Source: Escherichia coli | GTDB taxonomy: Bacteria > Pseudomonadota > Gammaproteobacteria > Enterobacterales > Enterobacteriaceae | DNA length: 64,000 nucleotides | Strand: one strand, 5' to 3' | Assembly (NCBI RefSeq): GCF_009931435.1 | Contig: NZ_CP043414.1 | Part shown: piece by piece, positions 6,569-55,688 of the stretch | How positions within the stretch are numbered: position 1 is the stretch's first letter | Layout of the letters: each line of letters begins with the position of its first letter | Position numbers and translations under genes: made by a program | Notes under the pieces: generated by a model | Told to the model about the DNA's origin: nothing | Databases searched by the model: none | What the model saw: the letters and a program-made list of their open reading frames with translations, nothing else

Positions 6569-6668
6569 TGCCTGATGCGCTACGCTTATCAGGCCTACAT
6601 AATCTCTGCAATCTATTGAATTTGCATGTTTTTGTAGGCTGGATAAGGCGTTCACGCCGCATCCGGCA
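6569..6668. repeat. BIME (two inverted REP units) between uspB and pitA
   Basis: tgcctgatgcgctacgcttatcaggcctaca ... gtaggctggataaggcgttcacgccgcatccggca; flanked by two gcgggccag..ctgacccgc hairpins at about 6520-6548 and 6700-6722. Confidence 0.8.
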
Positions 6669-6735
6669 TGAACAAAGCGCACTATGTCAACAATCTGAAG
6701 CGGGCCAGCTGACCCGCTCGTTTTGGTGCGTGCGA

Positions 6736-37656: not shown

Positions 37657-38322
37657 TTAACTCGCCTGCAAAGCGTTGATTTCGGATTTATCTGCCAGTC
37701 TTTTCAACAGCATATTGAGTAATACGCCATACATTGGCAGGAAGAAAACGATACTGATTAACACTTTGAAACAGTAATCGACCAGCGCGATTTCCATCCA
37801 GTGTTCAGCCATAAAGGCATCTGGGCTGCGCCAGAAGGCAATGAAGAAGAAGGCCAGCGTGTCGCTGACGTTCCCAAACAGGGTGGAAGCCGTCGGTGCC
37901 AGCCACCAGCGACGACTCTGACGCAGGCGGTTAAAAACGTGCACGTCGAGGATTTGCCCCAGCGCGTAGGCCATGAAACTGGCGGTGGCGATACGGGCGA
38001 CAAACAGGTTGAAGTGGGCGAGCGCGCCGAACCCCTGCCATGAACCCATATAGAACAGCGACGAGATGACGTAGGAGATCAGCAATGCGGGGATCATCAC
38101 CGCAAAGATGATGCGACGAGCCAGCGGCGCGCCAAAAATACGCACAGTCAGGTCGGTAGCAAGGAAAATAAACGGAAAGCTAAACGCGCCCCAGGTGGTA
38201 TGGAAACCAAAAATGGATACGGGAAGCTGAACCAGATAGTTACTGGAGGTGATCACCAACAGATGAAATAACGATAACCAGAACAACGCCTTATAGCGTT
38301 GAGTTTGCGAGAAAACGTTCAT
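37657..38322 (-). CDS. yhhQ: Queuosine-precursor transporter (YhhQ/COG1738)
   Basis: 221-aa polytopic ORF MNVFSQTQRYKALFWLSLFHLLVITSSNYLVQLPV... Confidence 0.88.
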   Translation of the reverse strand: MNVFSQTQRYKALFWLSLFHLLVITSSNYLVQLPVSIFGFHTTWGAFSFPFIFLATDLTVRIFGAPLARRIIFAVMIPALLISYVISSLFYMGSWQGFGALAHFNLFVARIATASFMAYALGQILDVHVFNRLRQSRRWWLAPTASTLFGNVSDTLAFFFIAFWRSPDAFMAEHWMEIALVDYCFKVLISIVFFLPMYGVLLNMLLKRLADKSEINALQAS

Positions 38323-38542
38323 ATTGTACCTTTTTGATTAACCATTGGGGTGAGGGAACCCAATACGTACGACACGTCTGTTACCTTAACATAATAACGT
38401 GCTGACCCTTTTTTCGAGCCGCCGCATGATACTGCTTTACGTTGACAATGCAATGGTTAATTTTCACGCAATCGTTAACCTGGTTTGCTTACGGACTCAC
38501 AGGGCGTAAACTAGCGCCGTTTTTTTATGTGATGAGAAGAAA

Positions 38543-38788
38543 ATGACCGATCTCTTTTCCAGCCCTGACCACACACTCGACGCACTTGGCCTGCGCTGCC
38601 CGGAACCAGTAATGATGGTGCGCAAAACTGTGCGCAATATGCAGCCAGGTGAAACGTTGCTGATTATTGCTGACGATCCGGCGACGACACGCGATATTCC
38701 TGGGTTTTGTACCTTTATGGAACACGAACTGGTTGCGAAAGAGACCGATGGACTGCCTTATCGTTATTTGATTCGCAAATCGGGGTAA
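38543..38788 (+). CDS. tusA: Sulfur-carrier protein TusA
   Basis: 81-aa [36 protein letters not shown]... with the CPxP motif. Confidence 0.95.
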
Positions 38789-38842
38789 GGTGGATCAGGC
38801 TAGCGGACCGATCGCGCTCAATTTTGCGGCTTGAAACCGGTT

Positions 38843-39080
38843 TGTAGGACGGATAAGGCGTTCAAGCTGCATCTGGCGATACGGTGCACAATGCCTGATG
38901 CGACGCTGTCGCGTCTTATCATGCCTACGAGTTCTATGCTCTGTGTAGGACGGATAAGGCGTTCACGCCGCATCCGGCGGTTGTGTGTGGATGCCTGATG
39001 CGACGCTGTCGCGTCTTATCATGCCTACGAGTTCAATGCCCTGTGTAGGCCAGATAAGGCGTTTACGCCGCATCCGGCAC
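38843..39080. repeat. BIME cluster (at least four REP units) containing a tandemly duplicated unit of about 100 bp
   Basis: Unit atgcctgatgcgacgctgtcgcgtcttatcatgcctacgagttc.atgc.ctgtgtagg.c.gataaggcgtt.acgccgcatccggc occurs twice (about 38891-38978 and 38991-39079). Confidence 0.8.
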
Positions 39081-39102
39081 GCAAACGTAATGGAATGCAC
39101 AA

Positions 39103-39411
39103 ATGGATTATTTAATTCCAGTTTGTCTGGCATTGCTGGGATTGCTCGCGATCTTCACCCCCAATTGGCTGATCCCTGTTTTTATCGTCGTGGGGGGATG
39201 GCTGGGGGTACTTGCCTGGGGTTGGCTCTGGCTAATGATTTTTTTACCTTTACTTAACGGTGTCGGGCTTGCTTATGCCCTGTGGTTGATGTTCAAAAGG
39301 CCATCCATAGCATCCCGCCTGGTTGCTGCATGCTGTGTTATCTCCGTCATTCTGATGTTAGCGCTTTATTATGCTTTCCTGACTATGCCGCCGTTCCCGC
39401 CTCAGCACTAA
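39103..39411 (+). CDS. Candidate small hydrophobic membrane protein (102 aa, Trp-rich, about three TM segments); not recognised
   Basis: ORF MDYLIPVCLALLGLLAIFTPNWLIPVFIVVGGWLGVLAWGWLWLMIFLPLL... between the BIME cluster and the zntA 3' end; weak RBS. Confidence 0.4.
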   Translation: MDYLIPVCLALLGLLAIFTPNWLIPVFIVVGGWLGVLAWGWLWLMIFLPLLNGVGLAYALWLMFKRPSIASRLVAACCVISVILMLALYYAFLTMPPFPPQH

Positions 39412-39443
39412 GCCTGATAGCCAGAGGCTATCAGGCAACACTT

Positions 39444-41642
39444 TTACTTCCTGCGCAACAATCTTAACGCATTCGCTGTTACCAGCACCGTCGCACCCGT
39501 ATCTGCCAGCACCGCCAGCCATAGTCCGGTCATCCCTAACAGCGTTGTGACGAGGAAGATCCCTTTCAGCCCCAGCGCAATGGTGATGTTCTGGCGGATG
39601 TTGGCGTGAGTGGCGCGTGCCAGTTCAATCATCTGCGCCAGGCCGCGCAGGTGGTTATGGGTTAATGCTGCGTCGGCGGTTTCCAGCGCCACATCTGTGC
39701 CACTGCCCATTGCAATTCCTATGGCGGCAGCTTTCATGGCGGGCGCGTCGTTAATACCGTCACCGACCATCGCCAGAGGCGCATGTTGATTCAGCTCGGT
39801 CACCGCTTTGACTTTATCTTCTGGTAATAGGCCCGCTTTAAATTCCAGCCCCAGTTCACCGGCGATTGCCGCCGCTGCGCGTGGATTATCGCCAGTGAGG
39901 ATCACCCCTTTGACACCCAGGGCGCTCAGTTCGCTGATGGCAGTTGCGGCGTCGGCGCGCAGGGTATCCTGCAATGCAATTACGCCAAGCACGTCATCGT
40001 TACGCACCACCAGTACTACCGTTTGCCCGGCGCTTTCCAGTTCGTTAATTAAACCAGCAAATGCAACAGCCGGATGTTTTCCGGCAGCGCATATCAACAC
40101 GCGCTCGCCGTTAATCAGTGCTTCAATACCAGACCCGACCAGCGCCCGCTGTGATTCGGCGGCGGGAATGGCGAGTTCAGCAACCTGTGCTTCGCGTACG
40201 ATGGCTTGCGCCAATGGATGCGTCGCGCCTTGCTCGACCGCCGCTGCCAGTGTCAGCAGTTCAGATTCACTAATACCCGTTGCCGGATGAATCGCGGTAA
40301 CGCGCGGTTTACCGACGGTCAGCGTACCGGTTTTATCAAACGCCACCTGGGTAACACGACCTAGTTGTTCCAGCGCCGCACCGCCTTTAATCAACGCCCC
40401 ACGACGCGCTGCGGCTGCCAGCCCGGAGGTGATCGCCGCAGGTGTTGAGATCACCAGCGCACACGGGCAGCCAATCAGCAGCAGCGTCAGCCCTTTATAA
40501 ATCCACTCCTGCCAGCTTGCGGCAAACAGCAGCGGCGGCACCAGCGTCACCAGCAGGGCGACGGCCATAATCGCTGGCGTGTAAATACGGCTGAAACGGT
40601 CGATAAACCGCTCAATCGGTGCGCGGCGCTCTTCAGCTTCTTCGATCAGTTTCAGAATCCGGTCAATGGCGCTGGCACCCGGTTCTGACAGCACTTCCAG
40701 CGTTACCAGACGGTCTACGCTGGTGGCGCCTGCAGGAACTTTATCACCCGTCGCGCGTTCCACCGGAATGGATTCGCCGGTCAGGGCGCTTTCATCAAAA
40801 CTGGCAAAGGGCGAGAGCAGTTTACCGTCGGCAGGTAAACGCCCACCTGCCGCAACTTCGATAACATCGCCCGGACGCAGGCTGTTAATTGCTACCTCTT
40901 CACGCTTGCCATTACGCAGGCGCGTGGCGGTTTCCGGTTTCAGCGCCATTAACGCGCTGACCCCTTGACGCGCGCGGCTGGCGGCCCAGCCTTCCAGTCG
41001 TTCACCAATCAAAAACAGCAGCAACACCATCGCAGCTTCAGCCGTTGCGCCAATAAACAGCGCACCAATAGCGGCTACGCTCATTAAGGTTTCAATAGCG
41101 AAGTAGCTGCCGGATTTGATCAGCCGTAATGCCTGACGAGCAATCGGGTACAGCCCAACCAGCGTGGTCGCGATAAACGCCAGTTGACCGAACGGATGAT
41201 TAAACTGCTCCAGACCCCAGCTGATTGCCATCAACACGATTAGCGTAATCAGCGGCAGATTCTCTTTCAGGCGTGATTCTTGTTGTTCGTCGGCGGACTG
41301 TTCATCGCGCAGGGAATAGCCCGCTTTTTGCACCGCAGATTCAACTTGTGCACGGATGTCATTGTCGGCATCAACCACCAGTTTTTCGGTGGCGAACAGC
41401 ACCTGCACCTGATTCACGCCTGCAAGCTGGCGCACGGCATTTTCTACCTTGCGCGCGCAGGCGGCGCAGTCCATGCCGCTGACTTTCCAGCTATAGCGGG
41501 TGCCGGAGACGTTTTCAGAGAGCGTTGGCGTGCTGGAACATGCGCCGTCGCAGCAACAGTCGTTGACGTTCTGTACCGTGGTTAGCGGTTTGAACGCAGA
41601 AAATTGAGGGGCTTTCTTGCCGTGATTGTCAGGAGTCGACAT
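39444..41642 (-). CDS. zntA: Zn/Cd/Pb-exporting P1B-type ATPase ZntA
   Basis: 732-aa ORF; N-terminal metal-binding GMDCAACARKVE, CPC transmembrane motif, DKTGTLT phosphorylation site. Confidence 0.96.
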   Translation of the reverse strand: MSTPDNHGKKAPQFSAFKPLTTVQNVNDCCCDGACSSTPTLSENVSGTRYSWKVSGMDCAACARKVENAVRQLAGVNQVQVLFATEKLVVDADNDIRAQVESAVQKAGYSLRDEQSADEQQESRLKENLPLITLIVLMAISWGLEQFNHPFGQLAFIATTLVGLYPIARQALRLIKSGSYFAIETLMSVAAIGALFIGATAEAAMVLLLFLIGERLEGWAASRARQGVSALMALKPETATRLRNGKREEVAINSLRPGDVIEVAAGGRLPADGKLLSPFASFDESALTGESIPVERATGDKVPAGATSVDRLVTLEVLSEPGASAIDRILKLIEEAEERRAPIERFIDRFSRIYTPAIMAVALLVTLVPPLLFAASWQEWIYKGLTLLLIGCPCALVISTPAAITSGLAAAARRGALIKGGAALEQLGRVTQVAFDKTGTLTVGKPRVTAIHPATGISESELLTLAAAVEQGATHPLAQAIVREAQVAELAIPAAESQRALVGSGIEALINGERVLICAAGKHPAVAFAGLINELESAGQTVVLVVRNDDVLGVIALQDTLRADAATAISELSALGVKGVILTGDNPRAAAAIAGELGLEFKAGLLPEDKVKAVTELNQHAPLAMVGDGINDAPAMKAAAIGIAMGSGTDVALETADAALTHNHLRGLAQMIELARATHANIRQNITIALGLKGIFLVTTLLGMTGLWLAVLADTGATVLVTANALRLLRRK

Positions 41643-49644: not shown

Positions 49645-49744
<100 letters not shown>

Positions 49745-49784
49745 ATTTCTCGTTGGTCATCACTTTTGAAATCAAACTTGACGA

Positions 49785-55488: not shown

Positions 55489-55589
<101 letters not shown>

Positions 55590-55688
55590 TGAAACGATGA
55601 GCAATCTGTAGAGTTTGATTAAGACCTTCTATTTTTCCCGCTTATCCGTGCCCCATCTCCCATTTTCCCTCACCCGCGCCGTCACCGC

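Follow-up and report, generated by a model that had tools for sequence, protein, structure and literature searches.

Tandem copies of an approximately 100-bp unit lie 3′ of tusA in the window analysed here, a 64-kb stretch of Escherichia coli DNA, and raise the question of what kind of element they form and how the additional unit was acquired. A reading made from the sequence alone had described a BIME cluster at 38843-39080 in which one REP pair with its linker recurs with only a few substitutions, as after a recent local duplication, and had attributed gyrase and IHF binding, mRNA stabilization and frequent rearrangement to clusters of this kind.

Tandem Repeats Finder returned a single array at 38843-39078 (period 100, 2.3 copies, 88% matches, no indels, score 360), the only tandem array with a score of at least 50 in the 64-kb window. 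A repeat search resolved an 88-nt pair at 38891-38978 and 38991-39078 with 94% identity (83/88) and three copies of a 36-nt element, starting at 38843, 38944 and 39044 with spacings of 101 and 100 nt. In a dot-plot-type comparison of 38800-39100 with itself, the top offset was 100 with 52% identity (median of all offsets, 25%), a value above that of every one of 500 shuffles of the same segment, the best of which reached 44% at any offset. A tandem unit of ~100 bp in a BIME cluster 3′ of tusA was thus confirmed, and its previously proposed span was accurate to within 2 nt. The array consists of five REPs of alternating orientation in the order Y1-S1-Z2a-l1-Y2-S2-Z2b-l2-Y3, with the following parts:

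38843-38878, minus strand: Y1, a decayed y-type REP with more than three mismatches to the y consensus
38879-38890: S1, a 12-nt short head-to-head linker (ATACGGTGCACA), delimited by segmentation
38891-38928, plus strand: Z2a, a z2-type REP with one mismatch to the z2 consensus (match at 38893-38928)
38929-38943: l1, a tail-to-tail linker (GAGTTCTATGCTCTG)
38944-38979, minus strand: Y2, an intact y-type REP with one mismatch to the consensus (match at 38945-38978)
38980-38990: S2, an 11-nt head-to-head linker (GTTGTGTGTGG), unrelated to S1 and the diagnostic junction of this allele
38991-39028, plus strand: Z2b, a z2-type REP with one mismatch to the z2 consensus (match at 38993-39028)
39029-39043: l2, a tail-to-tail linker (GAGTTCAATGCCCTG)
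39044-39079, minus strand: Y3, a y-type REP with two mismatches to the consensus (match at 39045-39078) and a hairpin of -6.7 kcal/mol
38948-39025, plus strand: full-length match of the Y2-S2-Z2b doublet to the Rfam family naRNA4 (RF02564), above the gathering score

On the plus strand, each Y starts with TGTAGG and each Z2 ends with CCTAC. The strand assigned to Y1 is that of the classical GCC...CTAC consensus, the plus strand reading 5′-TGTAGG. Allele comparison showed that three mutations in the Y1 stem (CAAGCTGCATCTGG) are common to all tusA alleles, including that of E. marmotae, and that S1 is conserved in all tusA BIME alleles; the DNA hairpin of Y1 (-1.9 kcal/mol) is no better than those of shuffles. 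The strongest hairpin of the array belongs to Y2 (-9.0 kcal/mol), the 5′ half of which resembles Y1 and the 3′ half Y3 or the consensus. Z2a folds at -7.1 kcal/mol, and l2 is found unchanged in a 1.3-unit allele (L006).

The array starts 55 nt 3′ of the tusA stop codon. Its surroundings, according to the ORF list, the RefSeq annotation of matching loci and a side-by-side intergenic comparison, are as follows:

38543-38788, plus strand: tusA, encoding the sulfurtransferase TusA (81 aa)
38789-38842: tusA-array spacer, from which a GC-rich palindrome is deleted here
39103-39411, plus strand: ORF of 102 aa (RefSeq hypothetical protein WP_000385055.1), 23 nt 3′ of the array
39412-39436: hairpin with a perfect 11-bp stem (GCCTGATAGCC-AGA-GGCTATCAGGC), flanked by the stop codons that end the 102-aa ORF and zntA
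39444-41642, minus strand: zntA, encoding a Zn/Cd/Pb P-type ATPase and transcribed towards tusA and the 102-aa ORF

The GC-rich palindrome (~42-56 bp, CCCTCACCCTAACCCTCTCCCCAGAGGG...), which we take to be Box C-like, lies between tusA and the array site in K-12, N61, R32_14_1F and E. marmotae (in relatives at 900-965 of L001 and 895-960 of L004) and has been lost by deletion from the window, AST262, 2017-02-2CC and 2020CK-00188. TusA ends in ...IRKSG in the window and in alleles without the palindrome, and in ...IRKGG in K-12; in the sequences compared, the IRKSG variant travels with the palindrome-deletion haplotype. A copy of the palindrome is also present beside the BIME-2 between ytfQ and ytfR (L022). 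The product of the 102-aa ORF is strongly hydrophobic and gave no match in a Pfam search. The ORF was detected in 314 of 5,426 complete E. coli genomes, is absent from K-12 and CFT073-type strains, and has homologues only in Escherichia (E. coli, E. marmotae and cryptic clades, with a truncated form in E. albertii). Because it always comprises 102 codons and shows pairwise dN/dS values of 0.25-0.5, it probably encodes a real small membrane protein. The hairpin at 39412-39436 is a possible bidirectional terminator; genomes without the ORF carry a different short sequence in its place.

To assign the array to a family, we searched for REP consensus sequences and found y matches on the minus strand and z2 matches on the plus strand, with zero expected in shuffles. 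The y and z2 consensus strings used are presumably the standard ones. They agree with the description by Ton-Hoang et al. (2012, PMC3333891), where the Bachellier/Gilson/Hofnung nomenclature is summarized and BIME-2 are characterized by y and z2 REPs in tandem copies, a short S between REP and iREP and flanking linkers of s, l or r type. At tusA we observed y and z2 REPs, alternating orientation with the GTAG/CTAC foot, short S linkers of 12 and 11 nt, multiple tandem copies and strain variation in copy number and linker. Since all sequence-level defining features tested are present, the array is, as judged by these features, an ordinary E. coli BIME-2 built of y and z2 REPs. The likeness extends to REP types, alternation, S and l linkers, ~100-bp units, extragenic location and strain-variable linkers and copy number, and nothing essential differs. 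Noteworthy at this locus are the lack of any REP in K-12, the decay of the first y REP and an unusually stable copy number, with three REPs in >99% of sampled carriers.

BIME-1, by comparison, are single z1-L-y pairs in which the long L linker carries the IHF site (PMC3333891). The tusA array has in common with BIME-1, RIB and RIP elements an inverted REP pair at the 3′ end of a transcription unit. Whereas BIME-1 comprise z1, a single copy and an L of ~35 nt with an IHF site, the array has z2 REPs as partners of y and S linkers of 11-12 nt, and its sequence contains no IHF core (WATCAANNNNTTR) at 0 or 1 mismatch; it thus falls outside the BIME-1/RIB definition. Three BIME-1 (z1, long L, y) are present elsewhere in the window (~6570-6670, 49645-49745 and 55490-55590), each with a one-mismatch IHF core in its L linker. 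Because the array is a gyrase-type BIME and not a BIME-1, the suggestion of IHF binding does not apply to it, and such binding by the tusA array is not expected from its sequence. Two Rfam matches to small RNAs were observed elsewhere in the window: ES036 (CssrF) at 6591-6631 on the minus strand, within the L linker of the first BIME-1, and the RyhB sRNA gene at 63762-63826 on the plus strand (RF00057, 83.1 bits).

Two further groups of BIME-2 were compared with the array. On the plus strand, Y2-S2-Z2b scored 67.5 bits against RF02564 (gathering score 59.5, model positions 1-77), and Y1-S1-Z2a (38847-38925) reached 58.4 bits, just under the gathering score. naRNA4 corresponds to a single unit of the BIME-2 REP325, which comprises six, and an HU-bound, transcribed and DNA-condensing RNA has been shown only for REP325 (Qian et al. 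2015, PMC4550694). Both loci contain the same 77-nt Y-linker-Z2 unit in the sense orientation of the upstream gene, but the units of REP325, located between yjdM and yjdN, number six and are nearly identical, while the tusA array has two doublets, one of them sub-threshold. The match suggests that HU binding of Y2-S2-Z2b RNA is possible, its meaning being limited by the fact that RF02564 effectively describes BIME-2 units in general. The second group, REPtrons, are BIME-2 flanking rayT (Nunvar 2010, PMC2817692; Ton-Hoang 2012, PMC3333891). The tusA array does not flank rayT (tnpA-REP) and is no REPtron; the best tblastn match to RayT in the 64-kb window had E = 0.14.

We compared the units with each other and with BIME-2 at other loci. 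Identity was complete between Z2a and Z2b (38/38), high between l1 and l2 (13/15), Y1 and Y2 (33/36) and Y2 and Y3 (32/36), and low between S1 and S2 (4/11). The description of the copies as differing by only a few substitutions therefore holds for the Z2-l-Y blocks, with 83 of 88 positions identical, and fails for the S linker. The Y2-S2-Z2b doublet is closer to the BIME-2 directly 3′ of rayT in O55:H7 (80/84, 95.2%) than to its own neighbour Y1-S1-Z2a (75/86, 87.2%). This rayT-flanking BIME-2, the nearest sequence relative of the new doublet, also contains the closest linker to S2 found elsewhere (GGTTGTGCGCGG), two C-to-T changes apart (GGTTGTGCGCGG versus GGTTGTGTGTGG). Its tail-to-tail linkers are of the AAAACTGCACTCAACC type, unrelated to GAGTTCAATGCCCTG at tusA, and there is no rayT near the tusA array. 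No donor or template for S2 was found within the window, and none among the 5,426 genomes besides R32_14_1F, where the sequence occurs at one place only; two matches in the metagenome collection were both chance matches inside unrelated coding DNA.

The Z2-l-Y blocks of the window, 83/88 identical to each other, agree at 85/88 positions with the N61 and E. marmotae alleles, at 81/87 and 80/88 with the ytfQ-ytfR BIME-2 and at 88% or less with the rayT and yjjV arrays. The ytfQ-ytfR BIME-2 holds a linker of the l1 family (GAGTTCGGTGCTCTG) that matches at 13-14 of 15 positions, and for this reason the l linker was withdrawn as tusA-specific proof of local copying. Likewise rejected was the use of the GCTCTG and GCCCTG variants of the l linker as proof of two separate deletions from a five-REP ancestor, E. 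marmotae being polymorphic for both.

To place the allele among its relatives, we surveyed the tusA-zntA spacer across strains. Two-anchor BLAST detected the tusA BIME in 796-809 of the 5,426 complete E. coli genomes. In 529 genomes, the BIME occurs without the ORF, with a three-REP span in all 39 sampled. In another 264, it is combined with the ORF, and the span was that of three REPs in every genome listed except R32_14_1F, the listing consisting of 80 rows from two overlapping lists of one search. REP counts were read from the spans of the two-anchor queries in the records. A statistic based on at least 80% coverage was dropped as unusable because a three-REP genome reaches 100% coverage once BLAST pieces that align repeatedly to its one unit are merged. 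Copy number was surveyed in a sample of rows that represents about 120 of the roughly 800 carriers, and further expanded alleles may have escaped this survey. Strain 2020CK-00188 surfaced by accident, only through an l1-Y2 query, and was absent from the top of the coverage-ranked listing. The architectures found at the locus besides that of the window were the following:

K-12: GC-rich palindrome only, with no REP and no ORF
33E: one Y and the ORF
some cryptic-clade loci: Z2 ... Y and the ORF
a metagenome scaffold (L016): Z2 ... Y-S-Z2 ... Y and the ORF
N61, CFT073, Nissle 1917 and relatives: Y-S-Z2-l-Y without the ORF
AST262, 2017-02-2CC, SMS-3-5 and E. marmotae: Y-S-Z2-l-Y and the ORF
2020CK-00188 (L021, 730-970): Y1-S1-Z2-l-[GGCCAG...CAAGCTGCATCTGGCG]-S1-Z2-l1-Y2-flank, a second and different five-REP allele

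REP numbers of 0, 1, 2, 3, 4 and 5 were thus met at the locus, the last in two different alleles. With at least seven architectures in Escherichia, the view of such clusters as rearrangement hotspots was borne out at tusA. The comparison of copy number across strains confined the extra unit, among the genomes listed, to R32_14_1F, besides the different allele in 2020CK-00188. The latter contains S1 twice and a hybrid REP with Y3 sequence at its 5′ and Y1 sequence at its 3′ end; its left flank is the same as that of the window. R32_14_1F, from a goat, was the only one of the 5,426 genomes with the S2 junction at 100% identity and equals the window base for base over the array and right flank (38843-39102). 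It is also the closest complete E. coli genome, with 98.6% identity over 22 kb (28000-50000), which places the strain of the window outside the complete-genome collection, in a sparsely sampled lineage. Because E. marmotae shares the three-REP form, Y1-S1-Z2-l-Y3 is, by this comparison, the ancestral arrangement at tusA, and the five-REP form is derived and rare.

Together, we consider it very probable that the array is a BIME-2 of three-REP ancestry that gained one ~100-bp unit by recombination among BIME units. On its sequence, the extra unit is not a clean duplication of its neighbour, because S1 and S2 agree at only 4 of 11 positions, Y2 is unlike both Y1 and Y3, and the doublet is nearer to the rayT BIME-2. 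We propose that the ancestral Y1-S1-Z2-l-Y3 would have grown to five REPs by one added unit in the lineage of the window, through recombination among BIME units and not through verbatim copying. The Z2 and l parts of the new unit would be of local type, and its head-to-head Y2-S2 part would be consensus-like or rayT-BIME-like, with a new linker. Candidate enzymes would be RecA, by unequal exchange or gene conversion with diverged partners, or the REP transposase RayT. In vitro, RayT cleaves TGCC/TGAT and GCC/TAC (slash, cleavage site) and generates recombinants with an additional REP and varied linkers, and linker and copy-number variation at a given BIME-2 locus is typical (PMC3333891). As such recombinants are made by RayT in vitro, RayT-type joining has to be considered alongside RecA-type exchange or conversion.

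A recent one-step tandem duplication of the 100-bp unit, in line with the sequence-only reading, would have proceeded by replication slippage or by RecA-dependent unequal crossover of Y3 with Y1, the few substitutions arising later. This account agrees with a period of exactly 100-101 nt without indels and with the near-identity of Z2a and Z2b, l1 and l2 and the Z2-l-Y blocks. Such an event does occur at tusA, where 2020CK-00188 carries the expected product. That product contains S1 twice and a hybrid Y with a Y3-like 5′ and a Y1-like 3′ end, whereas in the window Y2 is intact, consensus-like and of reversed polarity, and S2 takes the place of a second S1. At least seven changes in 11 nt against five in the other 88 nt correspond to no mutation pattern, and the arrays of the window and R32_14_1F are identical despite 1.4% divergence over 22 kb, so the differences between the units were already present when the allele formed. 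We regard this one-step event as unlikely here. Of the recent local duplication, it stands that the extra unit is derived and rare; the unit is not a plain copy, S2 being unrelated to S1 and Y2 not being a Y3/Y1 hybrid. Yet another reading takes the five-REP form as the older one in the sublineage and derives nearby three-REP alleles by homologous deletion between Z2a and Z2b or Y2 and Y3. Indeed, L006 equals the window minus Z2a-l1-Y2-S2, as recombination between identical Z2 copies would leave it, and the terminal l1-Y2-flank in 2020CK-00188 is the expected remnant of a Y2/Y3 deletion. Three REPs are, however, also present in E. marmotae, in nearly all ORF-bearing carriers and in the BIME-only type (529 genomes, including CFT073 and Nissle 1917), and with this wide spread the five-REP form would still have arisen by gain within E. 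coli; we rate deletion as very unlikely. Although tandem repeats are error-prone in assembly, an artefact from a mis-assembled repeat is extremely improbable, given that 38843-39102 recurs base for base in the independent complete genome R32_14_1F and that the array, at 236 bp, is below typical read length.

A gain mediated by RayT (TnpA-REP), in which a rayT-type Y-S-Z2 doublet was cut at the C/T sites of iREP or linker and joined in with its own S, is possible, and we entertain it tentatively. It would fit the greater similarity of Y2-S2-Z2b to the BIME-2 3′ of rayT in O55:H7 than to the neighbouring doublet, although the 95% partly reflects the closeness of Y2 and Z2 to the family consensus. 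Both cleavage motifs, TGCC/TGAT and GCC/TAC, flank Z2a and Z2b. Against it, the exact S2 donor was not found anywhere searched, R32_14_1F included, no rayT exists within the window, and the second l linker belongs to the tusA/ytfQ type instead of the rayT type, so that plain insertion of a doublet fails to explain the full 100-bp period. That Y2-S2-Z2b represents a natural footprint of RayT activity in vivo, with a rayT-type doublet joined into a partly decayed tusA BIME, seems doubtful though conceivable.

Regarding function, a scan of 38300-39700 detected no promoter and hence none between tusA and the 102-aa ORF. As no promoter-like site separates them, the array is probably transcribed from tusA, with the tusA transcript predicted to extend into it. 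Folding of the array RNA gave -115.9 kcal/mol for the plus strand (z = -4.6) and -103.1 kcal/mol for the minus strand (z = -5.4). Within the array, only the Y2 stem with the T-containing S2 behind it was scored as terminator-like, and weakly so. Intercistronic REPs of the malE-malF type are the classical mRNA-stabilizing REPs. The tusA array resembles them in that its REP hairpins separate two co-directional genes and that the intervening DNA showed no promoter. At the RNA level, the very stable plus-strand hairpins would protect tusA mRNA against 3′ exonucleases, and the array would reduce read-through from tusA into the 102-aa ORF. BIME-2 are enriched in gyrase cleavage, mostly at y REPs and independently of transcription (PMC6379681). 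At the DNA level, the y REPs would accordingly serve as preferred gyrase sites, one intact y REP having been added just upstream of a convergent gene pair. These putative roles in gyrase action, mRNA stability, attenuation and HU binding are transferred from other BIME-2 loci; gyrase targeting and mRNA stabilization are plausible for the tusA array from the literature.

BIME-2 arrays, their tandem growth and their strain variation have been described since the 1990s. The tusA array is an already known kind of element, as it belongs to a long-known family, matches an Rfam model and is present in public genomes. If the RayT footprint were true, it would mean that an intact Y-Z2 pair was restored by an event still polymorphic between close E. 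coli relatives, and the case would be among very few captured gains of a REP doublet in E. coli. Indels cluster in the compact tusA-zntA spacer, a hotspot in which REPs, the Box C-like palindrome and the Escherichia-specific 102-aa ORF are gained and lost in varying combinations. Within it, closely related strains carry either a product of unequal crossover (2020CK-00188) or a product beyond unequal crossover (the window and R32_14_1F). The locus thus constitutes a small natural test case of BIME-2 unit addition, setting RecA exchange against RayT-type joining with a new linker.
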